Notes: generated from the letters alone by a model not told the origin. Numbered from the stretch's first letter, positions 1 through 32,000 are shown. The stretch is DNA of 32,000 nt from Xanthomonas campestris pv. campestris str. ATCC 33913 (GCF_000007145.1 NC_003902.1:3176497-3208496), one strand, 5' to 3'. Program-made: numbers and translations.

Positions 1-685
1 TGAGCTGCGAGGCCACGCCCAGCTCGAAACTGCGCTGCTGCAAGCGGTAGCTGTCGCTTTGGCTGGTCAGCGTGGATTGCGCTAGCTGCAGCAGCTCCTG
101 GTCAGCGGCCAGGGTGAGATACGCGGTGGCCACATCGGCGACCAGACTGATGTGCGTGCTACGGCGGGCTTCGGCAGTGGAGAGAAATTGCTGCAGCGCC
201 TGTTCCTTGAGGCTGCGCACGCGCCCGAACAAATCCAGCTCGTACGCGCTCACGCCCACATTGGCGCTGTAGGTGCGGAACACCGGCGGCTGCCCGGGCA
301 CCGCCAGTTCGCTCGGGGTACGCGCGTTGTTGGCAGTGCCGGTGGCATCCACGCCGGGCACCAGCGCTGCACGCTCCACCCGGTATTGCGCGCGTGCCAC
401 TTCGATATTGAGCGCGGCCACACGCAGGTCGCGGTTATTGTCCAGCGCCAGCTGGATCACCTGTTGCAGCGCCGGGTCGGTGAACACCTCCCGCCAGCCG
501 ATATCGGCGATGACGGGAGTTTCTGCGCTCGCTGCCGCTTCGCTGGCAACGGTCGCCGCCGCGGTGGCACCGGCAAACTGCGCCGGCACCGGTGCGTCGG
601 GCCGCGCATAACGCGGCATCAGCGTGCAGCCAGACAACACGCTGGTCACCGCGAGTGCGGCAAGCGTCATTCGGATCGGTGTCAT
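1..685 (-). CDS. Outer-membrane factor lipoprotein of the RND efflux system (OprM/NodT family); 5' part only, gene runs off the window
   Basis: Not in the ORF track because no stop lies in the window. My minus-strand translation from ATG 685-683 gives [20 protein letters not shown] (lipobox LSGC), then [17 protein letters not shown] and later [65 protein letters not shown], typical of OprM-type channels. The ATG lies 1 nt after the RND permease stop (687-689). Confidence 0.85.
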
Positions 686-686
686 G

Positions 687-3600: not shown

Positions 3601-3821
3601 TTGTCCAGGCCCTTCATCTTCTGCTCGATGACCTGGGTGACGGTGTCTTCCAGGGTCTGCGCAGACGCGCCGGGATAGTTGGCGGTGATCGCCACGGCGG
3701 GCGGCGCGATGCTGGGGTATTGCGCGATCGGCAAGGTGGCGATGGACAGGATGCCGGCCAGCATCACGATGATGGCCAGCACCCAGGCGAAGATCGGGCG
3801 GTCGATGAAGAAGCGTGCCAT
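687..3821 (-). CDS. RND multidrug efflux permease (AcrB/MexB/SmeE-like, hydrophobe/amphiphile efflux-1 family)
   Basis: 1044-aa ORF starting [55 protein letters not shown]. Length and N-terminus are canonical for AcrB-type pumps. It sits between an MFP gene and an OMF gene. Confidence 0.95.
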
Positions 3822-3836
3822 GAGCTGGAGTCCGCC

Positions 3837-5036: not shown

Positions 5037-5090
5037 GGGGAAGGTCTCCGGGAAAACCGCGATGGATAAATCTAAACGGTACGGTTCGGT

Positions 5091-14923: not shown

Positions 14924-16372
14924 TTACGCGATGGGCAATCGCAAGGTGGCGATCGCACCGCCGCCGTCGCGATTGCGCAGGCGCACGTCGCCGCCGTGCA
15001 GGCGGGCCACCTCACGCACGAACGGCAAGCCCAGGCCGGAACTGCGTTGCCCGGTCTGCGGGCGCGCCAGCGAATAGAACCGCTCGAACACGCGTTCGAT
15101 CGCGTAATCGGGCACGCCACTGCCGCGGTCTTCGACCAACAGCTGCACCTGCCCGTCCTCCAGCTGCGTGCGCAGCTGCACGGTGCCGCCGTCCGGCGAG
15201 AAGGCGATGGCGTTTTCCAGCAGGTTGATCACGGCCTGCCGCAGCAGGAAGGCATCGCCGAGCACGGCCTGGTCGCTGGCGGCCATGCTTGCCGCATCGA
15301 GCTCCACCAGCACGCCGGCGCCAGCGGCGCGCAGCAATACCGCGTCCACCGCAGCCTGCAACACGCCAGGCACGGCCACACGCACACGGGTCTGCAGCCA
15401 GCCGTGTTGTTCAACCTCGGCCAGGGCGAGCAGCTTGTCGATGGTTTCGGTCAGGCGCTGCTCCTGGGCGCGGATGCTGGCCACAAAATGCTGGCGGTCG
15501 CACTCCGGCAATGGCTCGGTCAACAGCTCCGAGGCGCCACGAATGGCCGCCAGCGGGCTTTTCATCTCGTGCGTCAGCGATTGCACGTAGTGCTCGACGT
15601 AGGCCTTGCCCTCCAGCTTGCGGCGCATGGTTTCCAGCGCCTGGCCCAGGTCGCCGATTTCATCGCCGCGCGGCTTGGGCGGCGGCACCGGGATGCCCGC
15701 GCTCACCGCCTGCGCATAGCGATTCAACCGGCCGATGCCGCGCATCAGCCACCAGGTCATGCCGATGCCGATCAATGCGGAAATGCCGATCAACCAGGCG
15801 CCACGTTGCAGGATGTTGCGCTGGCTGGCTTCGATGAAGGGGTCGATGCTGCGATTGGGCTGCGCCAGCGTGAGCACGCCGATCAGTGTGCCCGGTGCGT
15901 CAGGCGCATAGATCGGTGCGGCCACATGCATCACCGTGGCGCCGGGGGTGCCATCCAGCTCCGGACTGGAGCGCGCGCCGTATTCGCCGCGCAAGGTGCG
16001 GTAGACATCGTTCCAGCGCGAGTTGTCGCGGCCGACGTCGCGGCCCAGCGAATCGAACACCACCACACCACGCGCATCGGTCACGGTGACGCGGTAATCC
16101 ACGTTGTTCTTGCGGAAGCGCCACACCCAGGCCTTGGGGTCGCGCTGCTGGGCCTGTGCCAGGTGGCGCGCAAAGCGGCCGGTGGCGATCTGCCCGGCCG
16201 CAAGCTCGGGGCTGGCCATCTCGGCCAGCACGTTGGCCGCGTCCACCAACGTGGATTCCATCGCCTGGCGCACGCCCGGCTTGACCTCGTTGACGAACAC
16301 CCGCATCACGAAGAAGGCGGCCAGCCCGACGATCAGAAAAAACCCGAGAAACAGCTTGAGGCCGAGCCGCAT
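14924..16372 (-). CDS. creC: Sensor histidine kinase CreC
   Basis: 482 aa. MRLGLKLFLGFFLIVGLAAFFVMRVFVNEVKPGVRQAMESTLVDAANVLAEMA parallels E. coli CreC MRIGMRLLLGYFLLVAVAAWFVLAIFVKEVKPGVRRATEGTLIDTA. H box LTHEMKSPLAAIRGA. Kinase boxes DRGSGVP and SGLGLPFV. Confidence 0.88.
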   Translation of the reverse strand: MRLGLKLFLGFFLIVGLAAFFVMRVFVNEVKPGVRQAMESTLVDAANVLAEMASPELAAGQIATGRFARHLAQAQQRDPKAWVWRFRKNNVDYRVTVTDARGVVVFDSLGRDVGRDNSRWNDVYRTLRGEYGARSSPELDGTPGATVMHVAAPIYAPDAPGTLIGVLTLAQPNRSIDPFIEASQRNILQRGAWLIGISALIGIGMTWWLMRGIGRLNRYAQAVSAGIPVPPPKPRGDEIGDLGQALETMRRKLEGKAYVEHYVQSLTHEMKSPLAAIRGASELLTEPLPECDRQHFVASIRAQEQRLTETIDKLLALAEVEQHGWLQTRVRVAVPGVLQAAVDAVLLRAAGAGVLVELDAASMAASDQAVLGDAFLLRQAVINLLENAIAFSPDGGTVQLRTQLEDGQVQLLVEDRGSGVPDYAIERVFERFYSLARPQTGQRSSGLGLPFVREVARLHGGDVRLRNRDGGGAIATLRLPIA

Positions 16373-16373
16373 G

Positions 16374-16727
16374 TCAGCACCGAATCCCGTTGGCCGCGCA
16401 CGCAGGTGTGTGGTCGTTGGTCGACCACCGCGTGGTCAAGTAGCCGTCAGCAGCCGGCGCATTTGGCATGGATGCGGCCAGCGCCGTTTGCGTCTGTGCC
16501 AGGAGCGACGAACGCAAGGTGGGCGTGCATAGGGATCGCGCAATTGCGGCACTGCGGGGGCACGCAACGTCGATCTCCTCCGCACGCGCCTGATGATGGC
16601 CGACGCAAGCCAGCGCGAACACATCGCGCCCACCCGCCAGGCCGTCCACTTCAGTCAGCCCACGCCGACCATGCAAACCGGCACGCTCGACCACCCCAAC
16701 CGCCGGCGGCTGAAACACGGCATCCAT
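16374..16727 (-). CDS. Candidate small ORF (117 aa) filling the creB-creC gap; no recognisable family
   Basis: ATG 16727 lies 2 nt after the creB stop (16730-16732), with GGAGG (16739-16735) 7 nt upstream. Its TGA (16376-16374) lies 1 nt before the creC ATG (16372). Product: MDAVFQPPAVGVVERAGLHGRRGLTEVDGLAGGRDVFALACVGHHQARAEEIDVACPRSAAIARSLCTPT...HTPACAANGIRC. About 72 percent of third positions are G/C by my count, apparently lower than in neighbouring genes, so coding status is uncertain. Confidence 0.3.
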   Translation of the reverse strand: MDAVFQPPAVGVVERAGLHGRRGLTEVDGLAGGRDVFALACVGHHQARAEEIDVACPRSAAIARSLCTPTLRSSLLAQTQTALAASMPNAPAADGYLTTRWSTNDHTPACAANGIRC

Positions 16728-16729
16728 CC

Positions 16730-17425
16730 TCAGACCTCCAGCGCGTAGCCAAGGCCACGGTGGGTGCGGATCGGGTCGGCCGGCACGCCGGCCTGGCGCA
16801 GCTTGGCGCGCAGCGTCTTGATATGGGTATCCACGGTGCGGTCGGCGCTGTCGGCACTGGCATCCCAGCCGCGGTCCATCAGCTGGCTGCGGCTGAGGAT
16901 GGCGCCGGGCCGCTGCAGCAGCGCGGCCAGCAGCGCATATTCGTAGCGCGTCAGCGGCAACAGCGTCTCGCCGTAGCGGATGCGGCTGCCGTCGCGATCG
17001 ATCGCGAACGCGCCGTGCGGCTGCCAGCCCGGTTCGGCCTGGGCCACGGCCACGCTGCGCCGGCGCAGCCGTGCGCGCACCCGCGCCACCAGCTCGCGTG
17101 GCGAAAACGGCTTGGCCATGTAGTCGTCGGCACCGAGTTCCAGGCCCAGCACGCGGTCGATCTCGTCGTTGCGTGCGGTCAGGAAGATCACCGGTACCTC
17201 GCTGAAACCGCGCAGCGTGCGGCAGACCTCGAAGCCATTGATATCCGGCAGGCCCACGTCCAGCACCACCAGGTCGGCGGGATCGTTGCGCAGCCGCTCC
17301 AGCGCCTCGCGCCCCAGCAGGCAGTGCTCGGGCACGTAGCCCTCGCTGCGCAGGGCGTACAGCACGGTGTCGGCAATGGCGGTTTCGTCCTCGACGACAA
17401 GGACACGGGCGGGGGTCTCGGACAT
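16730..17425 (-). CDS. creB: OmpR-family response regulator CreB
   Basis: Start chosen at ATG 17425 (MSETPARVLVVEDETAIADTV...), not the ORF-track 17635. Receiver motifs DLVVLDVGLPDINGF and VIFLTARNDEIDRV. Winged-helix tail RTVDTHIKTLRAKL...IRTHRGLGYALEV. Named from its linkage to creC and creD. Confidence 0.88.
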   Translation of the reverse strand: MSETPARVLVVEDETAIADTVLYALRSEGYVPEHCLLGREALERLRNDPADLVVLDVGLPDINGFEVCRTLRGFSEVPVIFLTARNDEIDRVLGLELGADDYMAKPFSPRELVARVRARLRRRSVAVAQAEPGWQPHGAFAIDRDGSRIRYGETLLPLTRYEYALLAALLQRPGAILSRSQLMDRGWDASADSADRTVDTHIKTLRAKLRQAGVPADPIRTHRGLGYALEV

Positions 17426-17651
17426 GGCGCGCAGCATAGCCGCATGCCGGCGCGGCCAATAGCACGCGGGCAACCGTGCACGGCCGCCGCGGGCCATCAT
17501 CGACCACACCACGCTGGCTGCACCTTGCGGCGCCGGCGCGTCGCAGACGCGCGCAGCCCGGTGCCCGGCCGCCTTGCTGCGCCCCACCCGGCGTAAACCG
17601 CCACCGCACCTGGCACAGCGCAAACCACCGCGCACCCTCTACACTGCCGCG

Positions 17652-19970: not shown

Positions 19971-22900
19971 ATGCCGTCGCCTACCTTCCCTTCTCCGCCG
20001 CTGCCCAAGTCCGGCCAGCTCCGCGCCTACTGGCGCGCTCCGTCGTCTCCGACGGCCCTGGCCTGGTCGATTGCACGCGCTGCCGAAGCGCATGCCGGCC
20101 CGGTGCTGGTGATTGCCCGCGACAACCAGAGCGCGCATCAGATCGAAGCCGATCTGCACGCCCTGCTGGGTGACGCGTCCGCGCTGCCGGTGGTGCCGTT
20201 TCCCGATTGGGAAACCCTGCCCTACGACCAGTTCAGCCCGCACCCGGAGATCATCAGCCAGCGCCTGGCGGCCCTGCATCGCTTGCCCGGTTTGACCCGT
20301 GGCGTGGTGACCGTGCCGGTGCAGACCTTGCTGCAGCAGCTCGCGCCGCTGAGCTACATCGTCGGTGGCAGCTTCGATCTCACGGTTGGCCAGCGCCTGG
20401 ATCTGGACGCGGAAAAACGCTGCCTGGAAAGCGCCGGCTACCGCAACGTGCCGCAGGTGATGGACCCGGGCGATTTCGCGGTGCGCGGCGGCCTGCTGGA
20501 TGTATTTCCGATGGGCGCCGACACCCCGTTGCGCATCGAGCTGCTGGACGAGGATATCGATTCCATCCGCGCCTTCGACCCGGAATCGCAGCGCTCGCTG
20601 GACAAGGTGGACGCGGTCAAGATGCTGCCCGGCCGCGAAGTGCCGATGGACGATGCCAGCGTGGAGCGTGTGCTCGCCTGCCTGCGCGAACGCTTCGACG
20701 TGGATACGCGGCGCAGCGCGCTGTATCAGGATCTGAAGTCCGGCATCGCACCGTCGGGCGTCGAGTATTACCTGCCGATGTTCTTCAGCAAGACCGCCAC
20801 GCTGTTCGATTATCTGGACACGCGCGTGCTGCCGCTGATCGCCACCGGCGTCTCCAATGCCGCCGATGCCTTCTGGCTGCAGGCGCAAAACCGCTACGAG
20901 CAGCGCCGCCACGATGTGGAACGCCCGCTGCTGCCGCCCGATGAGCTGTACCAGTCACCGGATGCCTTGCGCGAGCGGCTCAACAAGCTGGCGCGCATCG
21001 AAGTGTGGCCGGCCGACCATCCGCGTATCGACGAGGCCGCGCCGCTGGGCGACCAGCCGTTGCCGCCGCTACCGGTCGCCGCCAAGGATGCGCCCGCCGG
21101 GCAGGCCCTGGCCTCGTTCCTGGGCCACTACCCGGGCCGGGTGCTGGTAGCCGCCGATTCGGCCGGCCGCCGTGAAGCCTTGATGGAAGTACTGGCCGCC
21201 GCGCAGTTGAAGCCGGACGTCGTGGCCGACCTGCCCGCGTTCCTGGCCGCGACCAAACTGCGCTTCGGCATCACCGTGGCGCCGCTGGAAGACGGCTTTG
21301 CATTGGACACGCCGCAGATTGCGGTGCTGACCGAGCGCCAGTTGTTCCCGGAGCGGGCCAACCAACCGCGCCGCACGCGCCGCGTGGGCCGCGAGCCGGA
21401 AGCGATCATCCGCGACCTGGGCGAGCTCTCCGAAGGCGCGCCGATCGTGCATGAAGACCACGGCGTGGGCCGCTACCGCGGCCTCATCGTGCTCGACGCC
21501 GGCGGCATGCCTGGCGAGTTTCTGGAAATCGAATACGCCAAGGGCGACCGGCTGTATGTGCCGGTGGCGCAGCTGCACTTGATCAGCCGCTATTCCGGTG
21601 CCTCGGCCGACACAGCGCCGCTGCATTCGCTGGGTGGCGAGCAGTGGACCAAGGCCAAGCGCAAGGCCGCCGAAAAAGTGCGCGATGTCGCCGCCGAATT
21701 GCTGGAAATCCAGGCGCGCCGCCGCGCGCGCGCAGGCCTGGCCCTGCAGGTGGACCGCGCGATGTACGAACCATTCGCGGCGGGCTTTCCGTTCGAGGAA
21801 ACCACCGACCAGTTGGCCGCGATCGATGCCACCTTGCGCGATCTGGGCAGCAGCCAGCCGATGGACCGCGTGGTCTGCGGCGATGTCGGCTTCGGCAAGA
21901 CCGAGGTCGCGGTGCGCGCCGCGTTCGCCGCGGCCAGTGCCGGCAAGCAGGTCGCCGTGCTGGTGCCGACCACGCTGCTGGCCGAACAGCATTACCGCAA
22001 CTTCCGCGACCGCTTCGCCGACTACCCGATGAAGGTGGAAGTGCTGTCGCGCTTCAAGAGCACCAAGGAGATCAAGGCCGAGCTGGAAAAAGTGGCCAGC
22101 GGCGATATCGACGTGATCATCGGCACGCACCGACTGCTGCAGCCGGACGTGAAGTTCAAGGATCTCGGCCTGGTCGTGGTCGACGAAGAACAGCGCTTCG
22201 GCGTGCGTCAGAAAGAAGCGCTCAAGGCGATGCGCGCCAACGTGCATCTACTCACGCTCACCGCCACGCCGATCCCGCGCACGCTCAACATGGCCATGGC
22301 CGGGCTGCGCGATCTGTCCATCATCGCTACGCCGCCGCCGAACCGGCTCGCGGTGCAGACCTTCATCACCGCCTGGGACAACACCCTGCTGCGCGAGGCG
22401 TTCCAGCGCGAACTCAGTCGCGGTGGCCAGCTGTATTTCCTGCACAACGATGTGGAAAGCATCGTGCGCATGCAGCGCGACCTCTCCGAGCTGGTGCCGG
22501 AAGCGCGCATCGGCATCGCGCATGGGCAGATGCCCGAGCGCGAGCTGGAACGGGTGATGCTGGATTTCCAGAAGCAGCGCTTCAACGTGCTGCTGTCGAC
22601 CACGATCATCGAATCGGGCATCGACATTCCCAACGCCAACACCATCATCATCAATCGTGCCGATCGCTTTGGCTTGGCACAGTTGCATCAGTTGCGTGGC
22701 CGCGTCGGTCGCTCGCATCACCGCGCCTACGCATATCTGGTGGTGCCGGACCGCCGCTCGATGACCTCCGATGCAGAAAAGCGCCTGGAAGCGATTGCCT
22801 CCATGGACGAACTGGGCGCCGGCTTCACCCTGGCCACGCACGATCTGGAGATTCGTGGTGCCGGCGAGCTGCTGGGCGAGGACCAGAGCGGGCAGATGGC

Positions 22901-23438
22901 CGAGGTGGGTTTCAGCCTGTACACCGAACTGCTGGAACGCGCGGTGCGCAGCATCCGCCAGGGCAAGCTGCCCGACCTGGATGCCGGCGAAGAAGTGCGC
23001 GGCGCCGAGGTGGAACTGCACGTGGCCTCGCTGATTCCCGAGGACTACCTGCCGGATGTACACACGCGCCTGACGCTGTACAAGCGCATTTCCAGTGCCC
23101 GCGACAGCGATGCCTTGCGCGAGTTGCAGGTGGAAATGATCGACCGCTTCGGCCTGCTGCCGGACCCGGTCAAGCACCTGTTCGCGATCGCCGAGCTCAA
23201 GTTGCAGGCCAATGCCTTGGGCGTGCGCAAGCTGGATCTTGGCGAGAATGGCGGCCGGCTGGTGTTCGAGGCAAAGCCGTCGATCGACCCGATGACCGTG
23301 ATCCAGATGATCCAGAAGCAGCCGAAGATCTACACCATGGACGGCCCGGACAAACTGCGCATCAAGCTGCCGTTGCCCGAGGCTGCCGACCGCTTCAAGG
23401 CGGCACGTGGGCTGTTGACGGCCCTGGCACCGCGCTGA
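19971..23438 (+). CDS. mfd: Transcription-repair coupling factor
   Basis: 1155 aa. Superfamily-2 helicase motifs GDVGFGKTEVA (Walker A), VVDEEQRFG (DEEQ box) and LTLTATPIPRTL. The C-terminal TRCF domain and the length match Mfd. Confidence 0.97.
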   Translation: MPSPTFPSPPLPKSGQLRAYWRAPSSPTALAWSIARAAEAHAGPVLVIARDNQSAHQIEADLHALLGDASALPVVPFPDWETLPYDQFSPHPEIISQRLAALHRLPGLTRGVVTVPVQTLLQQLAPLSYIVGGSFDLTVGQRLDLDAEKRCLESAGYRNVPQVMDPGDFAVRGGLLDVFPMGADTPLRIELLDEDIDSIRAFDPESQRSLDKVDAVKMLPGREVPMDDASVERVLACLRERFDVDTRRSALYQDLKSGIAPSGVEYYLPMFFSKTATLFDYLDTRVLPLIATGVSNAADAFWLQAQNRYEQRRHDVERPLLPPDELYQSPDALRERLNKLARIEVWPADHPRIDEAAPLGDQPLPPLPVAAKDAPAGQALASFLGHYPGRVLVAADSAGRREALMEVLAAAQLKPDVVADLPAFLAATKLRFGITVAPLEDGFALDTPQIAVLTERQLFPERANQPRRTRRVGREPEAIIRDLGELSEGAPIVHEDHGVGRYRGLIVLDAGGMPGEFLEIEYAKGDRLYVPVAQLHLISRYSGASADTAPLHSLGGEQWTKAKRKAAEKVRDVAAELLEIQARRRARAGLALQVDRAMYEPFAAGFPFEETTDQLAAIDATLRDLGSSQPMDRVVCGDVGFGKTEVAVRAAFAAASAGKQVAVLVPTTLLAEQHYRNFRDRFADYPMKVEVLSRFKSTKEIKAELEKVASGDIDVIIGTHRLLQPDVKFKDLGLVVVDEEQRFGVRQKEALKAMRANVHLLTLTATPIPRTLNMAMAGLRDLSIIATPPPNRLAVQTFITAWDNTLLREAFQRELSRGGQLYFLHNDVESIVRMQRDLSELVPEARIGIAHGQMPERELERVMLDFQKQRFNVLLSTTIIESGIDIPNANTIIINRADRFGLAQLHQLRGRVGRSHHRAYAYLVVPDRRSMTSDAEKRLEAIASMDELGAGFTLATHDLEIRGAGELLGEDQSGQMAEVGFSLYTELLERAVRSIRQGKLPDLDAGEEVRGAEVELHVASLIPEDYLPDVHTRLTLYKRISSARDSDALRELQVEMIDRFGLLPDPVKHLFAIAELKLQANALGVRKLDLGENGGRLVFEAKPSIDPMTVIQMIQKQPKIYTMDGPDKLRIKLPLPEAADRFKAARGLLTALAPR

Positions 23439-23448
23439 GGGGTTGCAC

Positions 23449-23479
23449 CGTGCAATGCGCCCTGCTGGGGCGCACTGCA
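23449..23479 (+). terminator. Hairpin 11 nt after the mfd stop (terminator-like, no U tract)
   Basis: GTGCAATGCGCCC (23449-23461) pairs with GGGCGCACTGCAC (23467-23479): a 13-bp stem with one mismatch and a 5-nt loop. Confidence 0.4.
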
Positions 23480-24053
23480 CGGGCACGCTGCAGCTGTGGT
23501 GTTGAAGGCCGCGCACGCACTGTGCAACGCGCCGACGGTAATCAGCGATCTACCTTGGCCTGTTTTGGCGCATTGAATGCCCAGTGCAAGGCACTGCCCG
23601 CCAGCATCGCAGGCACAAACCACGATTGAACCCAGCGCCTGATCGCGGTGCATCTGTACTGCGCGATCATGAAAGCGTGCAGCGGCAATCGCCTGCAGCA
23701 GAGCAGCGCAACCGAGCAAGCTGCGTTTCGCAAAACCGCGCTGCGCGTTGGCCGCACTCTATACAGACGCAGACATGGGCAATGAGTGCTGCTCGCCGCG
23801 GAACCTTGTGTCAGACATCCATGTCAGCCATCACTAGCGTGCTCAACAGGCAGGCTTTTCGCATGCACAGCAATCACGCATGCCTTGAAACTGCATGCGC
23901 CTTTGATGGCAACCAAAACACCATGCCGTCGCAGCGCTCGCTTAAAAGCAGACTCAGCCGACAAGCAGCACGAATCACGTCATCGCAAACCTGAGCGGTT
24001 AACGCCCACGCAGTGATGCGCATCGCAAATCGGCCGCTTGGCTGAATTCGGCC

Positions 24054-24079
24054 TAAATATTTCTGTCACGCGCCGATAC
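24054..24079 (+). promoter_or_regulatory. Candidate sigma28 (FliA)-type promoter upstream of the chemosensory operon
   Basis: TAAA (24054-24057), a 14-nt spacer, GCCGATAC (24072-24079). The enterobacterial consensus is TAAA-N15-GCCGATAA. It lies about 110 nt upstream of the STAS ATG (24190). Motif match only. Confidence 0.4.
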
Positions 24080-24189
24080 CTGCATAGACCGACACGACTT
24101 GGGCTTACTTGGTAGCGCGTGAAGCCGATGTCGAGGTGAGAACTTCTCCGCGTCATGCCACGCACGTGTCATCGCTTCACGAGGCCGCA

Positions 24190-24519
24190 ATGGACATCTT
24201 TTCGTTGGATCTACCCGCCCCGCTCACGCTTGCCCTCGAAGGCGAGATGACCATCCGTCGCGCTGCCGAGCTCAAGCCATTGCTGCAGCCGGCGCTGGCG
24301 CATCCGGGTGGCGTGCGTCTGGACCTGGCTGCGGTCAGCGAGATCGACACCACTGGCCTGCAGCTGCTGCTCGCCACCAAGCAGGCGGTGCAGGCTGACG
24401 GACGCCCGTTTGTGTTGACCGACTCAAGCCGCGCCGTGGTCGATGTGATCGAACTGCTGGGCCTGCTGGAAGCGCTGTACCCGCACGCCGCCACCGGTCT
24501 GGGCGAACGAATTCATTAA
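24190..24519 (+). CDS. STAS-domain protein (anti-sigma-factor-antagonist / MlaB-like fold), first gene of the chemosensory operon
   Basis: Start chosen at ATG 24190 (GAGG at 24181-24184): MDIFSLDLPAPLTLALEGEMTIRRAAELKPLL...VRLDLAAVSEIDTTGLQLLLATKQAV. The motif DLxxVxxIDttGLqLLL is the STAS signature, with Thr-Thr where SpoIIAA/RsbV have the phosphorylatable Ser. 109 aa. Confidence 0.8.
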   Translation: MDIFSLDLPAPLTLALEGEMTIRRAAELKPLLQPALAHPGGVRLDLAAVSEIDTTGLQLLLATKQAVQADGRPFVLTDSSRAVVDVIELLGLLEALYPHAATGLGERIH

Positions 24520-24528
24520 CACGGACAG

Positions 24529-26550
24529 GTGACGCGCATGGACATGAACCAGCTGATGCAGACCTTCCTGGCCGAGAGCCGGGATCTGCTCGAAGACATG
24601 GAACGTCACCTGTTACAGGCCGAGCGTGGCGAGTCCTCGCCGGATGCGGTGAACGCGATCTTCCGTGCGGCGCACACCATCAAGGGCTCCGGCGGTCTGT
24701 TCGATCTGCCGCAGCTGGTGGGCTTCACCCATTTGGTGGAAAGCGTGCTGGATCTGGTGCGCGAAGAATCGGTGGCGCTGCAGTCGGAACTGATCGCCTT
24801 GCTGCTGGTGTGCTGCGACCACATCCATGCATTGGTGGAGACCGCCGCCGACCCCAGCCATGCCGATCCCGCTGCATTGGCCGCCGAAGCCGAGCCCCTG
24901 CTGGCGCAATTGCAAACCTACCTGCAAGGCAGCGTTTGCGGCGCAACTGTCAGCGACGCGCAGCGCAGCACGCCGGAAAAACAAAGCGGTTACTGGCGCG
25001 TCAACCTGACCCTGTTTGCCGATGCGCTGCGTTTTGGCAACTCGCCGTTGAAGCTGATCCGCAACCTGCGCGGGCTCGGTTCCGTCGAGTCGATCAGCAC
25101 CGACTACAGCAAATTGCCGGTGTTCGAGGAGCTCGACCCGGAAGCCAACTACCTTGGATTCCAGATCCTGCTGCGCAGCGATGCAGACCGCGCGGCGATT
25201 GAAGACGTGTTCGAATTCGTGCGCGAAGACTGCGACCTGGAGATCGTCGCGGTGCCGGCGCCACTGGACACCACGCTCAGCGCCGCGACCGCCATCGTCA
25301 CTGCGGAACCGGTGCACGCACCGGCACCGGCCATTGCCGCGGTACCGCCACCGCGCGCCGCTGCAACGACTGCCGAGACTGCGCCGCGTTCCAATGAAGC
25401 GCGCTCCATCCGCGTGGACGCCGACAAGCTCGATCGCATGATCGACCTGGTGGGCGAGTTGATCATCGCGGTGGCCAGCACCGGCACCAATGCACAGCGC
25501 ACCGGTGATGCGCAGCTGCTCGAATCCACCTCGATCCTGGCGGGCCTGGTTGAAGAGGTACGCGAAAGTGCACTGCAACTGCGCATGGTCAAGATCGGCG
25601 GCACTTTCAGCCGCTTCCAGCGCGTGGTGCACGATGTGGCGCGCGAGCTGGGCAAGGACATCGCGCTGGTCGTCGCCGGCGAAGACACTGAACTGGACAA
25701 GTCGGTGGTGGAAAAGATCGGCGACCCGCTCACCCACCTGGTACGCAATGCGATGGACCACGGCATCGAGCCGGCAGACGTGCGCGTGGCCAACGGCAAG
25801 CCGGCGCGTGGCACCGTCGGCCTGAATGCCTTCCACGACTCCGGCAGCATCGTCATCCAGATCACCGATGACGGTGGCGGCCTGAATCGCGACAAGATCC
25901 TGGCCAAGGCGCTGGAGCGCGGCCTGGTCGAACCCGGCCGCCAGCTCAGTGATCGCGAAGTGTTCGCGATGATCTTCGAGCCCGGGTTTTCCACTGCCGA
26001 GAAAGTCACCAACCTGTCCGGCCGCGGTGTGGGCATGGATGTGGTCAAGCGCAACATCACCGCGCTGCGCGGCTGCGTGGACATCGACAGCACCGCCGGC
26101 GTGGGCACCACCATTTCGGTGCGGCTGCCGCTGACGCTGGCGATCATCAACGGCTTCCAGGTGGGCATTGGCAAGTCGGTGTTCGTGGTGCCGCTGGATG
26201 TGGTGGAAGAGTGCGTGGAATTCACGCCCGACTACACCAGCGACTACATCGACCTGCGCGGCAGCGTGCTGCCGTACGTACGCCTGCGCGAATTGTTCGC
26301 GCTGGGCGGCAAGCGGCCGGCCCGCGAAAGCATCGTGGTCATTCGCCAGGGCGCGCAGCGGTTCGGGTTGGTCGTGGACACCTTGTTGGGCGAATGGCAG
26401 ACCGTGATCAAGCCATTGTCCAAGGTGTTTGCGCAGGTCAAGGGCATCAGTGGTTCGAGCATTCTCGGCAGCGGCGAGGTCGCGCTGATTCTCGATGTGC
26501 CCAGTCTGATCCAGCAATTGCATCCGGGCCAGGACGCGCTGGCCGCCTGA
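24529..26550 (+). CDS. cheA: Chemotaxis histidine kinase CheA (no fused receiver domain)
   Basis: Hpt site FRAAHTIKGSGG. Kinase boxes HLVRNAMDHGIE (N), DDGGGL (G1), IFEPGFST (F) and GRGVGMDVV (G2). CheW-like C-terminus. GTG 24529 is the ORF-track start; ATG 24538 (MDMNQLMQTF) is equally plausible. Confidence 0.93.
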   Translation: MTRMDMNQLMQTFLAESRDLLEDMERHLLQAERGESSPDAVNAIFRAAHTIKGSGGLFDLPQLVGFTHLVESVLDLVREESVALQSELIALLLVCCDHIHALVETAADPSHADPAALAAEAEPLLAQLQTYLQGSVCGATVSDAQRSTPEKQSGYWRVNLTLFADALRFGNSPLKLIRNLRGLGSVESISTDYSKLPVFEELDPEANYLGFQILLRSDADRAAIEDVFEFVREDCDLEIVAVPAPLDTTLSAATAIVTAEPVHAPAPAIAAVPPPRAAATTAETAPRSNEARSIRVDADKLDRMIDLVGELIIAVASTGTNAQRTGDAQLLESTSILAGLVEEVRESALQLRMVKIGGTFSRFQRVVHDVARELGKDIALVVAGEDTELDKSVVEKIGDPLTHLVRNAMDHGIEPADVRVANGKPARGTVGLNAFHDSGSIVIQITDDGGGLNRDKILAKALERGLVEPGRQLSDREVFAMIFEPGFSTAEKVTNLSGRGVGMDVVKRNITALRGCVDIDSTAGVGTTISVRLPLTLAIINGFQVGIGKSVFVVPLDVVEECVEFTPDYTSDYIDLRGSVLPYVRLRELFALGGKRPARESIVVIRQGAQRFGLVVDTLLGEWQTVIKPLSKVFAQVKGISGSSILGSGEVALILDVPSLIQQLHPGQDALAA

Positions 26551-26621
26551 CCGTTCAAACCGTCGCTCGTCTTCCCACGCCGCCGTTCTACGTCGTTCCC
26601 TGACTCCAGGAAGCTGCCACC

Positions 26622-28757
26622 ATGTCGCACCGTCTCCCGATCGCCACCCAACTGTGGTTCACCGCCGCTTTCGCCATTGCCCTGCCGGTTGTGGTGGTGG
26701 TTGCCGGCTTCGCACTCACGCTGTCGCATGCTGCACTGCTGGCGGCGAGCGTGCTGGCCGCACTCGCCAGCGGTGTGCTGCTGGCCTGGTCGATCCGCAC
26801 CGCTACCGGCTCGCTGGAGATCGCCACCACCACGCTGGACGCCTTCGCCCGCGGCAACTTCGATGTCGCCCTGCCGCAGGTGCGCGACGAGCAGGCCTGT
26901 GAAGTGCTGCGCGGCCTGCGCAAGGTGCAGAGCGGCATCCGCCACGTCAACGACGAAATCAACCGTGTCTCGCACGAACACGACGCCGGCGAGATCGATG
27001 CGCGCATCGATGTGGCACGGTTTGATGGTGACTTCCGCGCCATGGGCGACGGCATCAACCGCATGGTCGCCAGCCATATCGCGGTAAAGAAGCAGGCCAT
27101 GGCCTGCGTGGCCGAATTCGCCCGCGGCAATTTTTCCGCCGAGCTGGAACGCCTGCCCGGCAAGAAGGCCTTCATCAACGAGGTCGTGGACCAGATCCGC
27201 GGCAACCTCACCGGCCTGGTCGCCGAAGTCAACCGCATGGCAGTCGAACACGATGCCGGCGATATCGACGTCGTGATCGACACGCAGCGCTTCACCGGCG
27301 ATTTCCGTCGCATGGCCGAAGGCATCAATGCGATGGTGGCAGGACATATCGCGGTCAAGAAGCAGGCCATCGCCTGCGTGGCCGAGTTCGGCCGCGGCAA
27401 CTTCACCGCACAACTGCCGCAGCTGCCGGGCAAGAAGCGCTTCATCAACGAGACCATCGATCAGGTGCGCGGCAACCTCACCGGCTTGATCCGCGAGATC
27501 AACCACATGTCGGCCGAACACGAAGCCGGCGACATCGATGTGGTGATCGATACCGCGCGCTTCGACGGTGACTTCCGCAGCATGGCCACCGGCATCAACG
27601 AAATGGTGGGTGCGCATATCGCGGTCAAGAAGCTGGCAATGGGCGTGGTGGCAGAGTTCGGCCGCGGCAACTTCGACGCGCCGCTGGCGCAGCTGCCCGG
27701 CAAGAAGGCCTTCATCAACGACACCGTAGAGCGTGCACGCGGCAACCTGCGCAGCATCTCCGAGGTGATCCAGGTAATGGGCGCGATGGCCGAGGGCGAC
27801 CTCACGCACACCGTGGAAGGCCGCTATGAAGGCGCGTTTGCCGACATGCAGCGCTACGTCAACACCACCATGAGCCGCCTCACCGAGATCGTCGATGAGG
27901 TCAACCGCAACGCCGAGAACCTAGCCAGCGCATCGGAACAAGTCAGTGCCACCGCGCAGGCACTGGCCCAGGCCGCCAGCGAACAGGCGGCCGGCGTGGA
28001 AGAAACCAGCGCCTCGCTTGAGCAGATGACTGCTTCCATTGCACAGAACACCGAAAACGCCCGCGTCACCGACAGCATGGCCGCCAAGGCTGCCAGCGAG
28101 GCGGCCGACGGTGGCGACACCGTGCGCGCCACGGTGGTGGCGATGAAGGACATCGCCAAGAAGATCGGCATCATCGACGACATCGCCTACCAGACCAATC
28201 TGCTGGCGCTCAATGCCGCGATCGAAGCCGCACGCGCCGGCGAACACGGCAAGGGCTTTGCGGTGGTGGCCGCAGAGGTACGCAAGCTGGCCGAGCGCAG
28301 CCAGATCGCCGCGCAGGAAATCGGCGAAGTGGCTGGGTCCAGCGTGGAACTGGCCGAAAGCGCCGGCCGCGTGCTGGGCGAGATGGTGCCTTCGATCCGC
28401 CGCACCTCCGATCTGGTGCAGGAGATTGCCGCAGCGTCCGAAGAACAGACCGCCGGCGTCAGCCAGATCAACACCGCGGTGGGCCAGTTGAACCAGACCA
28501 CCCAATCCGCCGCGGCCAATGCCGAAGAACTGGCCGCCACCTCGGAAGAGATGAGCGCGCAGGCCGAGCAGTTGCAGCAGTTGATGGGCTTCTTCCGGCT
28601 GGGCAACGGTGGGCGTGGCAATGTGCCGGCGGCCAAGCCGGTGCAACGTCGGGTTGCGCCTGCCGCCAGCCTGCCGCTGCGCCGTGCCAACGTGCGTCCG
28701 ATCAGCGCGGCGGTCGCCGCCGATGTGATCGACGAATCCCAGTTCGCCAGCTTCTGA
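26622..28757 (+). CDS. Methyl-accepting chemotaxis protein: N-terminal transmembrane hairpin, about 8 HAMP-like modules, MCP signalling domain
   Basis: 711 aa. Highly conserved hairpin-tip region [40 protein letters not shown]. Two hydrophobic segments sit at the N-terminus with almost no loop between them. See the repeat feature 26976-27785. Confidence 0.93.
26976..27785 (+). repeat. Three tandem 270-bp (90-codon) in-frame repeats inside the MCP gene, each encoding two HAMP-like modules
   Basis: Units start at 26976, 27246 and 27516 (each begins GAACACGA). They encode [180 protein letters not shown] and [90 protein letters not shown]. Confidence 0.9.
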
Positions 28758-28767
28758 GGAATCGACG

Positions 28768-29283
28768 ATGCAACAGCGCAGCGTAGAGACCGGTGGCGCG
28801 CCCGCCATGCCCGCACCCCAGCAATACCTCACCTTCCTGCTGGGCGGTGAGATGTTCGGCCTGGGCATCCTGGGCATCAAGGAAATCATTGAATACCGAA
28901 TTCCAACCGAAGTGCCGATGATGCCGCCGGCGCTGCGTGGAGTGATCAACCTGCGTGGTGCGGTGGTGCCGGTGATGGACGTACAGCTGCGCTTTGGCCG
29001 CAGTGCGAGCGCCATCACCAAACGCAGCTGCATCGTGATCGTGGAGATCGCACGCGCCGGTGAGCAGCAGGTGTTGGGCTTGCTGGTGGACGCGGTCAGC
29101 GAAGTGGTGGAGATCGCGCCCGCCGACATTGCCGATGCGCCCAGCTTCGGCGCCGGCATCCATCGCGATTTCATCCACGGCATGGCCAAGCGCGACGAGC
29201 GCTTCGTGATCCTGCTGGATGCCGACGCCGTGCTGGCCAACGACGCGCCGGCGCAGCTGCCCGACGCCGCGCTGGCGGCCTGA
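28768..29283 (+). CDS. cheW: Chemotaxis coupling protein CheW
   Basis: 171 aa. YLTFLLGGEMFGLGILGIKEIIEY...LRGVINLRGAVVPVMDV is the canonical CheW core. GAGGA lies 7 nt upstream of the ATG. Confidence 0.92.
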   Translation: MQQRSVETGGAPAMPAPQQYLTFLLGGEMFGLGILGIKEIIEYRIPTEVPMMPPALRGVINLRGAVVPVMDVQLRFGRSASAITKRSCIVIVEIARAGEQQVLGLLVDAVSEVVEIAPADIADAPSFGAGIHRDFIHGMAKRDERFVILLDADAVLANDAPAQLPDAALAA

Positions 29284-29291
29284 CTCTTTCC

Positions 29292-30593
29292 GTGCACGCC
29301 AGGACTCTCATGCACTCTCCACTCCTTTCCTGCAACTGCGCACTGGCCGGCCCGGTCCTGGTGGTCGACGACAGCGTGGTCCAGCGCGAACACGCCATGG
29401 CGCTGTGCCGCCAATTGGGCGCCAGCGTGGTGGAAGGTGCCGGCGACGGCCATGCCGCGCTCGACTGGCTGAGCCGCGCCAGCGCACCATCGCTGCTGTT
29501 GATCGACCTGGAAATGCCGGGAATGGACGGCGTGCAGCTGCTCGATGCGCTGGCACGCGGCCAGCACAGCGTGCCGGTGGTGGTGGTCTCGCAGCGCGGC
29601 GGCGCGCTGATCGATGCGGTGATGCAACTCAGCCGCAGCGCCGGTGTGCGCGTGCTCGCCGGCCTGGAAAAACCGCTGCGCCTGCAGGACCTGGCCACCA
29701 CGCTGGACTGCATTCCCGAACCGCTCGCCGAGACCACCACCGCGCTGTCCACGCCGCTCTCGCCGCTGCTCTCCAGTGGCGGCGCGGCGGCCTCGCGGCT
29801 GGATCGCGCCATGCGGCGCGGCGAAATCCGCGTGGCTTATCAGCCCAAGCTGGACCTGCGCGACGGCCGCCTGCGCGGCGTTGAGGCCCTGGCGCGCTGG
29901 CGCCGCCCGCAAGGCGACATGATCGGCCCGGACCGCTTCATTCCCTTGGCCGAGCGCGAAGGTTTGATCCACGCACTCACCCAGCAGGTGATCGACAAGG
30001 CGGTTGCGCAACTGGTCGACTGGCGCGCCGAAGGCCTGCAACTCACGCTGGCCTTGAACCTGTCGCCCAATCTGCTGGGCGAGCAGGATTTTCTCGAACA
30101 CCTGTGCGCCAAGCTGGCCGACAACGGCCTGGCACCGGCCGACCTGGTGCTGGAACTCACCGAAAGCGCCATCGTGGAGCCGGCCAATGCGCTGAGCATG
30201 CTGGCGCGGCTGCGCCTGCATGGGTTCGGCCTGTCCATCGACGATTACGGCACCGGCTTTTCCTCGTTGCAGCGGCTGGCCAGCATCCCGTTTACCGAGC
30301 TCAAACTCGACCGCAGCTTCGTGCATGCCGCGCACCGCAGCCGCAGCCAGCGCACCGTGCTGGAATCCACGCTGGAGCTGGCCCACCGGCTGGAACTCAC
30401 TGCCGTGGCCGAGGGCGTGGAAACCCCGGAGGACTGGCGCCTGCTCCGCGAACTCGGCTGCGACCTGGCCCAGGGCTACCTGATGGCCTCCCCGATGCCG
30501 GGCCCGATGTTGTCGGAGTGGTGGCGCGAACACGCCAGCCGCATCGCCCGTCTCTGCAGCAGCGAGCTTCCCACTGATGCCGACCTTGTCTGA
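29292..30593 (+). CDS. Response regulator with receiver plus EAL domain (predicted c-di-GMP phosphodiesterase)
   Basis: Receiver: VLVVDDS, LLLIDLEMPGMDG (phospho-acceptor Asp), VVVVSQRG, LEKP. EAL domain: YQPK, GVEALARW, LALNLS, LELTES, SIDDYGTGFSS, ELKLDRSF, VAEGVE, AQGY, which are all the usual catalytic and metal-binding positions. GTG 29292 or ATG 29310 is the start. Confidence 0.9.
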   Translation: MHARTLMHSPLLSCNCALAGPVLVVDDSVVQREHAMALCRQLGASVVEGAGDGHAALDWLSRASAPSLLLIDLEMPGMDGVQLLDALARGQHSVPVVVVSQRGGALIDAVMQLSRSAGVRVLAGLEKPLRLQDLATTLDCIPEPLAETTTALSTPLSPLLSSGGAAASRLDRAMRRGEIRVAYQPKLDLRDGRLRGVEALARWRRPQGDMIGPDRFIPLAEREGLIHALTQQVIDKAVAQLVDWRAEGLQLTLALNLSPNLLGEQDFLEHLCAKLADNGLAPADLVLELTESAIVEPANALSMLARLRLHGFGLSIDDYGTGFSSLQRLASIPFTELKLDRSFVHAAHRSRSQRTVLESTLELAHRLELTAVAEGVETPEDWRLLRELGCDLAQGYLMASPMPGPMLSEWWREHASRIARLCSSELPTDADLV

Positions 30594-31404
30594 GCCCATG
30601 AGCACGTCGACCGCGATCACCGAACAGGAATTCGGGCGCTTTCAGCGCTTCATTTTCGAAGCCGCCGGCATCAGCATTTCTTCCGGCAAGAAGGCCATGT
30701 TGTGCGGACGGCTGGGCAAGCGCCTGCGCGAGCATCAGTTCGACAACTACACCCAATACCTGCAATTGCTGGAAAGCCGGCAGGATCGCGACGAGATCCA
30801 GACCGCGATCGACCTGCTGACCACCAACGAAACCTATTTCTTCCGCGAGCCCAAGCACTTCGACCTGCTGCGCCGCCTGGCTGACGACCACCGTGGTGGG
30901 CTGCCGCTGCGCTGCTGGAGCGCGGCCAGTTCCACCGGCGAAGAGGCCTACAGCATGGCGATGGTGCTCGACGACGCGCTGCAAGGCCGTGCGTTCGAGG
31001 TGGTCGGCACCGACATCAGCAGCCGCGTGGTGGCCAAGGCCCGCACCGGCCACTACGCCCTGCAGCGCATCGACGGCATTCCACAGGCGTATCTCAAGCG
31101 CTACTGCCTGCGCGGCCAGGGCGAGTACGCCGGCACCTTGCTGGTGGAGCGCCGCCTGCGTGACCGGGTCAAGTTCGTGCATGCCAATCTCAACGCCGCC
31201 TTGCCGATGCTGGGCAGCTTCGATGTGATCTTCCTGCGCAACGTGATGATTTATTTCAATGGCCAGACCAAGCGCGAAGTGATCCTGCGCGTGCTGGCCA
31301 ACCTCAAACCGGGCGGGCACTTCTGCATCGGCCATTCGGAAAGCCTGAGCGAGCTCGACATCGATCTCATCCAGGTGGCACCGTCGATCTTCCGTAAAGC
31401 CTGA
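30577..31404 (+). CDS. cheR: Chemotaxis protein-glutamate O-methyltransferase CheR
   Basis: 275 aa. [31 protein letters not shown] and [10 protein letters not shown] are CheR SAM-methyltransferase motifs. ATG 30577 overlaps the REC-EAL gene by 17 nt. The alternative ATG 30598 lies 4 nt after its stop. Confidence 0.92.
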
Positions 31405-31418
31405 GCCAGGGATCCACC

Positions 31419-32000
31419 GTGTCCACAGCGTTCAACCGCCCCATCCCGCAGTCCCAGACCATCAAGGCAATGGTGGTCGATGATTCGGCGGTGGTACGCC
31501 AGGTGCTGGTGGGCGTGCTCAACGAAGCGCCCGGCATCGAGGTCATCGCCACCGCCGCCGACCCGTTGCTGGCCATCGAAAAAATGCGCCAGCAGTGGCC
31601 GGACGTGATCGTGCTGGATGTGGAAATGCCGCGCATGGATGGCATCACCTTCCTGCGCAAGATCATGAGCGAGCGCCCCACCCCGGTGGTGATCTGCTCC
31701 ACGCTCACCGAAAAAGGCGCGCGCGTCACCATGGATGCACTGGCCGCCGGCGCAGTGGCCGTGGTCACCAAACCGCGGCTGGGACTCAAGCAGTTCCTCA
31801 CCGACTCGGCCGACGAGCTGGTGGCCACCGTGCGCAGCGCCGCGCGCGCCAACGTCAAACGCCTGGCCGCACGCGTCACTGCCGCGCCGCTGGAGGCCGA
31901 GGTCAAGCACACCGCCGATGTGATCCTGCCTGCGCAAACCGGCCGTGCGTTGGCGCAGACCACCGAGCGGATCGTGGCCATCGGCACCTCCACCGGCGGC
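31419..32000 (+). CDS. cheB: Chemotaxis response regulator protein-glutamate methylesterase CheB, N-terminal part (runs off the window)
   Basis: Not in the ORF track because no stop lies in the window. My translation from GTG 31419 gives [94 protein letters not shown]...[11 protein letters not shown]. That is a receiver domain followed by the start of the methylesterase domain (IGxSTGG). An alternative ATG lies at 31470. Confidence 0.9.

Follow-up and report, generated by a model that had tools for sequence, protein, structure and literature searches.

The chemosensory operon considered here lies on the + strand at the end of a 32,000-nt stretch of the genome of Xanthomonas campestris pv. campestris (Xcc) strain ATCC 33913 (GCF_000007145.1 NC_003902.1:3176497-3208496), which was analysed as a whole and is referred to as the window. 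Its seven genes encode, in this order, a stand-alone STAS protein, the kinase CheA, a chemoreceptor (methyl-accepting chemotaxis protein, MCP), the coupling protein CheW, a response regulator composed of a receiver (REC) and an EAL domain, CheR and CheB. As the best explanation, to which we give slightly better than even credence, the operon is suggested to be an F8-class system with a sigma-28-type promoter, in which phosphorylated CheA (CheA~P) would serve the REC-EAL protein and modulate the hydrolysis of cyclic di-GMP (c-di-GMP). The effect of receptor signals would then probably be a decrease in this second messenger and not the steering of the flagellum.

The suggested mechanism assumes that the operon is expressed from its sigma-28 (FliA)-type promoter together with the late flagellar genes. 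A membrane-anchored poly-HAMP receptor of the 34-heptad (34H) type, lacking a periplasmic sensor, would form an array with CheW and CheA, whereby CheR and CheB would provide methylation-based adaptation. The phosphoryl group of CheA~P would be passed to the two receivers of the operon, i.e., that of CheB (feedback) and that of the RocR-type REC-EAL protein, and phosphorylation of residue D66 would alter the c-di-GMP phosphodiesterase (PDE) activity of the EAL domain. The receptor state would thus give rise to a c-di-GMP signal that is transient, adapts and may be confined to the vicinity of the array, instead of a flagellar switching signal. This mechanism was proposed because of synteny in two gene positions, the invariance of functional residues and the lack of CheY in the clusters of several separate lineages; the phosphotransfer from CheA to REC-EAL, how strongly and in which direction PDE activity would respond to it, and the targets of c-di-GMP are what we infer.

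Chemosensory class and the REC-EAL regulator

Open reading frame (ORF) listing of positions 22000-32000 returned seven + strand ORFs in the order given above, and the domains of all seven products were supported by Pfam and NCBIfam, which confirms the gene set, the common direction and the positions proposed in the initial annotation. In the receptor, three HAMP_N3 domains as well as McpB_HAMP_2, HAMP_2 and MCPsignal were matched (Pfam), and two hydrophobic segments were found within residues ~7-58, a periplasmic domain being absent. When compared with the 36-heptad (36H) receptor Tsr (6S1K, 3ZX6, 1QU7), its signalling domain possesses two symmetric 7-residue deletions, one in each arm of the hairpin, and the receptor was therefore assigned to the 34H class, which settles the heptad class that had been left as a check. 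Receptors of this type form a minor class and are a published marker of F8 systems (PMC11253619; PMC7184735). The methylation consensus was matched at five sites of the receptor. Within its gene, Tandem Repeats Finder identified a 270-nt repeat encoding three HAMP-containing units of ~92 residues each; in X. translucens and Pseudoxanthomonas, whole receptor genes are duplicated instead (three and two genes, respectively). The receptor ends in DESQFASF (28734-28757), and a DE-x-x-F-x-x-[FY] tail is kept in the in-cluster receptors of nearly all lineages, where it looks like an F-for-W variant of the NWETF-type tether for CheR and CheB. In beta-proteobacterial clusters, the small receptor preceding CheY ends in E-[IV]-T-F-F.

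For CheA, the Pfam domains Hpt, H-kinase_dim, HATPase_c and CheW were identified, while Response_reg was not matched; the NCBIfam CheA equivalog scored 457 bits, below its cut-off of 793. CheA, CheW, CheR and CheB thus co-occur in one cluster in which CheZ, CheC, CheX and CheV were not found (Pfam and NCBIfam on the cluster ORFs and on L001, a complete X. campestris genome that is 99% identical). Considering the 34H receptor, the gene content and the orthology to clusters with the same receptor class, the operon is assigned, on sequence grounds, to the F8 class of chemosensory systems.

The STAS protein at the head of the operon matches Pfam STAS_2 (E 1.7e-16) and, below the cut-off, TIGR00377 (E 1.8e-11). 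It carries the motif DTTG, whose general form D-[ST]-x-G is the phosphorylation site of SpoIIAA/RsbV-type antagonists. In the survey of orthologous clusters described below, the STAS gene is found directly upstream of cheA in 33 of 43 cases, and the hydroxyl residue at the motif is kept in all of these (33/33). Neither an anti-sigma kinase nor a PP2C phosphatase was found in the cluster, in the 10 kb downstream of it in L001 or among the upstream window ORFs examined. Anti-sigma antagonists heading F7 and F8 clusters have been described, with F8 as sister group (Ortega et al. 2020, PMC7184735), and STAS-headed clusters appear in published gene-order diagrams (PMC9239204); the STAS head is hence no novelty, the protein being a conserved accessory of F7/F8 clusters.

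The REC-EAL protein, for which Response_reg (E 1.1e-16) and EAL (E 3.3e-73) were matched in Pfam, aligns over its full length, i.e., with both domains, to RocR of P. aeruginosa (3SY8, E 5.1e-54). Residue conservation was assessed in an alignment of 18 homologues of 46-93% identity. Here, the receiver residues D20, D21, the phospho-acceptor D66, S94 and K121-P122 (aligned to RocR) are invariant, as is the EAL set comprising E192-A-L194, N250, E282, E285, D311-D312 (DDYGTGFSS), K332, E368, E371 and Q388. As a consequence of this invariance of both receiver and catalytic residues, the protein is predicted to be phosphorylatable and catalytically active. It scored 290.9 bits against the NCBIfam PvrR equivalog NF052596, below the cut-off of 580, and is therefore not a PvrR orthologue but belongs to a different clade. 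BsmR of Stenotrophomonas was likewise considered and dismissed as orthologue, being encoded in a two-component operon. A recent fusion of a CheY to an EAL domain was ruled out, as the receiver is about equally distant (33-36% identity) from the CheY of the Paracidovorax cluster and from CheB receivers. In most Xanthomonas species the REC-EAL protein is 85-93% identical, falling to ~60% in X. translucens (61%) and the X. sacchari group. Between Xcc and Paracidovorax, identity amounts to ~80% for the receptor signalling domain, ~69% for the CheA kinase core and ~50% overall for REC-EAL, so that the core has changed far more slowly than the putative output module.

Four distant homologues of the REC-EAL gene that were looked up singly are all located in che clusters (4/4). 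Paracidovorax avenae and one metagenome-assembled genome possess the order MCP-CheY-STAS-CheA-MCP-CheW-REC-EAL-CheR-CheD-CheB, and in Andreprevotia REC-EAL follows cheB. A survey of species-representative genomes comprised 80 REC-EAL loci (36-88% identity), which were annotated by assigning domain-level tblastn queries to stop-to-stop ORFs. At least two types of che genes were found on the same strand as the REC-EAL gene in 51 of the 80 loci. A complete CheA was present in 43 loci, with REC-EAL residing between cheW and cheR in 20 and after cheB in 23 of them; CheD was found in 20 orthologous clusters. Pseudoxanthomonas composti (L008), one of the four homologues looked up singly and fetched apart from the survey, shares the layout of Xcc, including the lack of CheY. 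Homologues of less than ~45% identity are mostly encoded outside che clusters, which identifies the REC-EAL protein as member of a distinct, che-associated clade.

All in-cluster receptors could be aligned to the 34H receptor of Xcc without indels, with 63 of 76 high-scoring segment pairs being free of gaps at 55-84% identity, while three receptors encoded outside the clusters possess 14 additional residues, i.e., the 36H pattern, which documents that the gap test discriminates between the two classes. For the kinase core of CheA, identities range from 54 to 95% over the 43 clusters and exceed 90% within Xanthomonas. As the in-cluster receptors are of the same class and the CheA cores are similar, the in-cluster loci are, judged from these alignments, orthologous F8-type systems, distributed over ~28 beta- and gammaproteobacterial genera. 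Phosphoryl supply of the REC-EAL protein by CheA~P, as initially proposed, is strengthened by the embedding in che clusters at 51 of 80 loci together with the invariant residues.

The same data bear on the assumption that a second chemotaxis system once existed of which the cluster is what remains, now silent or in decay, the EAL gene having been inserted by chance. CheY and CheD, which beta-proteobacterial clusters possess, are indeed missing, a sensor domain is absent from the receptor, and the phenotype of a cheA deletion is mild. Set against this, all seven genes are intact, REC-EAL and the CheA core are well conserved within Xanthomonas, the catalytic residues are invariant, conservation extends to the promoter motif, transcriptomes document responses of the genes, and the same REC-EAL insertion recurs in ~28 genera. 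A remnant is therefore very unlikely and essentially excluded by conservation.

Promoter, expression and proposed output of the operon

The operon is preceded by an unusually long non-coding leader, in which no family-supported ORF was found; an RNA element was considered for it and dropped, as an Rfam scan gave no family. The leader contains a sigma-28 (FliA)-type motif, TAAATATT-N10-GCCGATAC. In the form TAAA-N14-GCCGATA it has one match in the 32 kb on both strands, with 0.00 expected from 100 dinucleotide-preserving shuffles. The pattern that was looked for, a -35 box TAAA and a -10 box GCCGATAA about 15 nt apart before the first gene, is hence present with a spacing of 14 nt. Ten Xanthomonas species, among them X. 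translucens with its diverged REC-EAL protein, and Pseudoxanthomonas have kept the two boxes at equal distance from the STAS gene, while spacer and flanks diverge, and this retention of the boxes next to a diverged spacer is the footprint expected of a sigma-28 promoter. Transcription of the operon would accordingly be FliA-dependent and part of the flagellar regulon. A generic sigma-70 promoter scan returned no match in this region. Conserved blocks were found in the last ~200 nt of the leader when Xanthomonas species were compared. More such blocks (e.g., CTGAGC..TTAA, CAAATC, TGAATT) reside upstream of the motif, within 23900-24053, and could be binding sites for an additional regulator.

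The CheR accessions of the cluster bear the product name 'response regulator for chemotaxis', which is also that of XC_1410 (XCC2704) in PMC6430473, and on this basis the cluster was identified as XC_1409 (cheB) to XC_1415 (STAS) of Xcc strain 8004. Published work has covered several of these genes, so that the cluster has already been studied to some extent. Expression of XC_1410, XC_1413 and XC_1414 was found to be decreased in a pilG mutant and increased in a pilH mutant, alongside that of flagellar and che genes (PMC7029496). XC_1412-1414 respond to the deletion of hpaS (PMC7036368), and XC_1410 is up together with flagellar genes in an hpaR1 mutant (PMC6430473). For the predicted FliA dependence, the shared response with flagellar genes in the pilG, pilH and hpaR1 mutants is indirect support. 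The cheA gene itself has been deleted in frame (XC_1414), which left swimming and swarming on plates unaltered; deletion of the cheY gene XC_2302 led to a loss of ~80% of swimming (PMC7029496). The XC_1414 phenotypes, including the capillary responses considered below, fit a system that modulates behaviour indirectly and does not drive the flagellar switch; they are compatible with a c-di-GMP route and with cross-talk alike and do not distinguish between them. An interaction of PilG with CheA in Xcc was examined as a link to the operon and rejected, the partner being another CheA, XC_2284. In X. oryzae, knockout of the EAL protein VieAxoo (PXO_04753) affects biofilm formation and the non-host hypersensitive response. 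As X. oryzae pv. oryzae possesses an orthologue of XC_1411 and a review lists a single REC-containing EAL-only protein, VieAxoo is probably this orthologue.

Several observations weigh against the REC-EAL protein being the phosphorylation-controlled output of a FliA-dependent operon. The 14-nt spacing of the promoter motif is one base shorter than that of canonical E. coli sigma-28 promoters, and its last base is C, not A. The putative P2 domain of CheA, to which a response regulator would dock, is only weakly recognisable (residues 172-231, sub-threshold E 0.11). The receiver of REC-EAL is 44.5% identical between Xcc and Paracidovorax as opposed to 82% for the CheB receiver, so that REC-EAL diverges faster than the core. 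Deletion of XC_1414 altered capillary responses to CaCl2, serine and arginine (PMC7029496), which could reflect cross-talk to the motor pathway. Other CheYs, e.g., XC_2302, are encoded elsewhere in Xcc. The paralogous REC-EAL protein BsmR acts independently of its phosphorylation state (PMC5498567). Finally, a single-domain CheY is encoded upstream of STAS-cheA in 26 of the 43 orthologous clusters, and the REC-EAL protein need therefore not be the primary output of the class.

In the remaining 17 clusters a single-domain CheY is absent, these belonging to the nine Xanthomonas species surveyed, Andreprevotia, Iodobacter, Chitiniphilus and Uliginosibacterium. From this distribution, the ancestral EAL protein was probably a second branch and not the sole output, and the CheY-less state is probably derived yet recurrent in several lineages. 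The earlier view of REC-EAL as the output may hence apply to the CheY-less cluster of Xcc, while it would be too much to call it the output of such systems in general. A search seeded with the Stutzerimonas protein located REC-EAL, among the named pseudomonad matches, only in Stutzerimonas, Ectopseudomonas, Zestomonas and a few Pseudomonas sp. With no orthologue from P. syringae among its matches, the search gave no support for an overlooked REC-EAL protein in the F8 cluster of this species, which had been considered as explanation for the non-cooperation of CheA1 and CheY1 there. F8 clusters thus occur as CheY-only, CheY plus EAL and EAL-only. Two individual clusters deserve mention: in that of an uncultured Deefgea sp. 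(L053), a single CheA cluster is followed in tandem by two REC-EAL and two cheB genes, as if the pair of cheB and REC-EAL had been duplicated locally, and that of Paracidovorax (L003, 11715-17233) lies near type IV pilus genes, being followed by a ribD-like gene, a minor pilin and PilY1. The F8 (che1) cluster of P. syringae also adjoins pilus genes (PMC5088630).

Given these points, two further explanations have to be considered. According to the first, the REC-EAL protein is a constitutive PDE set by its expression level, and its receiver is no meaningful target of CheA: the sigma-28 promoter would supply the PDE whenever flagella are made, with the che core acting otherwise or via CheB only. 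Such an arrangement would agree with the conserved sigma-28 motif and the co-expression of the cluster with flagellar genes, and has counterparts in E. coli pdeH, a FliA-dependent class 3 flagellar gene, and in V. cholerae VieA, whose PDE activity is reportedly independent of phosphorylation. BsmR, too, controls swimming and biofilm formation by its expression level and not by phosphorylation (PMC5498567). Co-expression alone is, however, hard to square with the retention of REC-EAL in che clusters, in two positions, in 51 of 80 species. Moreover, the aspartate pair, D66, S94 and K121 would not be expected to remain invariant over 46-93% identity, and the clade stands apart from more distant REC-EAL homologues (less than ~45% identity), most of which are encoded outside che clusters. 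We consider control by expression level unlikely.

The second explanation, which is given a similarly low probability, regards the REC-EAL protein as a modulator, i.e., a phosphate sink or a c-di-GMP sensor, whereby the outputs would be CheYs encoded elsewhere (e.g., in the main F6 flagellar cluster) that are reached by cross-talk. The majority of orthologous clusters (26/43) keeps a CheY just upstream of STAS-CheA, the altered capillary chemotaxis of the XC_1414 deletion to CaCl2, serine and arginine would be accounted for, cross-talk between kinases and regulators of different systems is documented in P. syringae and Comamonas (PMC11253619; PMC6391922), and phosphate-sink CheYs are established in Sinorhizobium, as cited within PMC11253619. 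In several separate lineages, however, CheY is absent and REC-EAL retained; the invariance of all catalytic residues would be superfluous in a pure sink, for which the EAL domain need not be intact; and swimming on plates is unaltered by the deletion of XC_1414. Phosphotransfer from CheA to a catalytically active REC-EAL protein is thus preferred over both explanations.

Gene calls and surroundings

Coordinates of the operon and of the features associated with it are compiled in the table. Gene calls were compared with L001, P0001 denoting its matching REC-EAL protein, which is 99% identical to that of the window. While the gene set held, some of the start codons first assigned are ambiguous, since CheA, REC-EAL, CheR and CheB are called differently in L001: CheA from ATG 24544 (668 aa), REC-EAL from ATG 29310 (427 aa), CheR from 30598 (268 aa, 4 nt past the EAL stop) and CheB from 31401 instead of 31419, with a 4-nt overlap with cheR. 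An exact look-up of the 433-aa REC-EAL product with GTG start gave no match, the annotated start being ATG 29310. For CheR, a 275-aa form starting at ATG 30577 and overlapping the EAL gene is the annotation in strain ATCC 33913. The overlap between the EAL gene and cheR, which had been thought possible, accordingly depends on the cheR start used: it exists with 30577 and is replaced by a 4-nt gap with 30598. Intergenic distances are 4-71 nt or small overlaps, again varying with the start codon chosen. The spacer between the STAS stop and the cheA ATG is 24 nt in the window and 18 nt in L001 (a 6-nt strain-level indel).

Features of the chemosensory operon (positions counted from the first nucleotide of the window)
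Feature	Position	Strand	Locus	Description
Non-coding leader	23439..24189	+		~750 nt between mfd and STAS
Sigma-28 (FliA)-type motif	24054..24079	+		111 nt upstream of the STAS ATG
STAS	24190..24519	+	XC_1415 (assigned by inference)	stand-alone, anti-sigma-antagonist type, 109 aa
CheA	24544..26550 (alternative GTG 24529)	+	XC_1414	P1-(P2-like)-P3-P4-P5, no receiver
MCP	26622..28757	+	XC_1413	34H-class receptor; transmembrane hairpin, poly-HAMP, signalling domain
Tandem repeat	26975..27748	+		period 270 nt, 2.9 copies, 76% matches, score 835
CheW	28768..29283	+	XC_1412	coupling protein, 171 aa, Pfam CheW E 3.8e-36
REC-EAL, RocR type	29310..30593 (alternative GTG 29292)	+	XC_1411 / XCC2703 (assigned by inference)	427 aa, predicted PDE
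CheR	30598..31404 (alternative ATG 30577)	+	XC_1410 / XCC2704	Pfam CheR_N and CheR
CheB	31401..32000	+	XC_1409 (assigned by inference)	receiver part, cut by the window edge

The visible part of CheB matches the NCBIfam CheB subfamily with E 4.1e-56; the full protein has 375 aa in L001, including a CheB_methylest domain, and would end ~528 nt beyond the window. In L001, mfd lies directly upstream of the operon and cheB is followed by convergent genes of the PLD and M13-peptidase families, from which it follows that the operon ends at cheB; within the 10 kb downstream, no cheY, GGDEF, PP2C or anti-sigma gene was found. The look beyond position 32000 that the initial annotation had called for thus completes the operon, and its observation that no CheY is visible was confirmed, as no CheY, CheZ or flagellar gene was detected in the 32-kb window. 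When receiver sequences were compared by tblastn with the entire window, one further receiver was found, that of an OmpR-type regulator (16730-17635, - strand), which adjoins a dCache-HAMP-HisKA-HATPase sensor kinase (14924-16372, - strand); this ordinary two-component pair (14924-17635) is unrelated to the che operon. A GGDEF domain was found neither in the seven cluster genes nor in 15 other ORFs of the window (Pfam). No internal terminator stands out, as 6 terminator-like sites compare with 5.6 expected by chance from shuffled sequence. The G+C content of the window is ~65%. At its beginning, two long ORFs overlap on opposite strands (624-5069, + strand, 1481 aa, without Pfam match, and 687-3821, - strand, 1044 aa); the true gene in the region 624-5069 is probably on the - strand, spurious long ORFs being typical of DNA with 65% G+C.

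Known systems and meaning of the finding

Among the known chemosensory systems, Wsp, a member of the alternative cellular functions (ACF) class, shares the logic proposed for the operon, in which chemoreceptor signals act via a CheA-type kinase, with adaptation by CheR and CheB, on a response regulator that is itself an enzyme of c-di-GMP turnover. Wsp makes c-di-GMP via the REC-GGDEF protein WspR, while the Xcc operon encodes a predicted c-di-GMP-degrading REC-EAL protein and is of F8 type; WspE is a hybrid of CheA and a receiver that works with two CheW-like proteins, whereas the Xcc CheA has no receiver and is accompanied by one CheW; and the Wsp receptor belongs to another length class and has a periplasmic domain of the four-helix-bundle (4HB) type, in contrast to the transmembrane hairpin without periplasmic domain in Xcc. 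The description of the operon as mirror image of Wsp hence captures its logic but not its kinship, as is evident from the F8 class, the 34H receptor, the single CheW and the lack of a receiver in CheA.

Closer in composition is the F8 system (che1/cluster II, PSPTO_09xx) of P. syringae pv. tomato, which shares the in-cluster 34H receptor, the tail of which in Xcc may likewise be of pentapeptide type, the core of CheA, CheW, CheR and CheB without CheZ, and a kinase with little or no role in plate motility. For this system a receptor pentapeptide tether with matching CheR was reported (PSPTO_0912/0910). It differs in its nominal signalling via CheY1, as the Xcc cluster has neither CheY nor CheD and possesses a poly-HAMP receptor without periplasmic domain. 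The P. syringae system is the only F8 system studied by genetics and cryo-tomography, and the only one studied in a plant pathogen, and its output 'remains a mystery' (PMC5088630; PMC11253619). Ancestral F7 systems of 'stage 1/2', i.e., V. cholerae cluster III and P. aeruginosa Che2 with Aer2/McpB, resemble the operon with respect to the STAS head, the poly-HAMP receptor and the presence of CheR and CheB; they do not control the motor, and a role in stress or stationary phase is suspected (PMC7184735). They differ by 36H receptors with a PAS-haem sensor, by CheY, CheD and often a PP2C phosphatase, and no EAL protein has been described for them.

As to the regulator, RocR and PvrR of P. aeruginosa share the two-domain architecture, the catalytic and receiver residues and the receipt of the phosphoryl group from an Hpt domain, as would be the case with CheA P1, but obtain it from classical or hybrid sensor kinases (RocS1, PvrS), a CheA array not being involved. 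PDEs tied to the chemotaxis machinery or the flagellar regulon are Pch/DipA of P. aeruginosa and PdeH of E. coli, Pch being described as partitioned with CheA and creating c-di-GMP heterogeneity (PMC3861689); they have no receiver and are not encoded in a che operon, their coupling being achieved by protein interaction or co-expression. BsmR of S. maltophilia, from the same bacterial family, shares the REC-EAL architecture; through its PDE activity it favours swimming at the expense of biofilm formation, but it is reported to be phosphorylation-independent and is encoded in a four-gene two-component operon (bsmT, a histidine kinase gene, bsmR and another histidine kinase gene) instead of a che cluster (PMC5498567). 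Two candidates for a precedent were discarded: Comamonas 'Flm' is of the type IV pilus (Tfp) class, with FlmD as PilH orthologue and without an EAL protein (PMC6391922), and the cyanobacterial 'CheY-EAL' is a mere domain-table entry with no che context.

A review from 2022 lists ACF and Tfp only as chemosensory classes that modulate c-di-GMP, and a 2026 preprint calls F8 'experimentally unexplored' in Vibrionales. Full-text literature searches found no paper on a che-cluster REC-EAL protein or on a test of CheA-to-EAL phosphotransfer, in agreement with the initial statement that a pathway from Che proteins to an EAL protein has not been dissected experimentally. None of the component families is new, routine annotations of the genes exist for hundreds of genomes and Wsp provides a parallel for the logic, so that the operon is not a new category of system; new would be the wiring of an F8 array to a c-di-GMP-degrading regulator, as a candidate for the F8 output.

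Beyond Xcc, a more general idea is put forward tentatively, as we hold it to be somewhat less probable than not: F8 arrays in many Beta- and Gammaproteobacteria would be second-messenger machines with adapted CheA-to-REC-EAL signalling, of which those of Xanthomonas, Iodobacter and Chitiniphilus would have lost CheY and that of Xanthomonas would have become wired to FliA. The cell may then perceive changes in a stimulus over time as short-lived decreases or increases in c-di-GMP, perhaps restricted to the pole, and the loss of CheY may leave c-di-GMP degradation as the sole dedicated output in these three genera. The known chemosensory pathways for c-di-GMP (ACF, Tfp) make the messenger; if the suggested mechanism holds true, a 'flagellar-type', adapted F8 array would control its breakdown, the F8 class would be given a concrete output, and the pathway would exemplify how outputs can be exchanged around a constant core, with CheY alone, CheY together with EAL, or EAL alone. 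Xcc is tractable in this respect, as XC_1414 mutants already exist. Virulence, motility and biofilm formation of Xanthomonas are governed by c-di-GMP via Clp and PilZ proteins, and a receptor-gated PDE within the flagellar regulon would be a plausible new control point in this genus.

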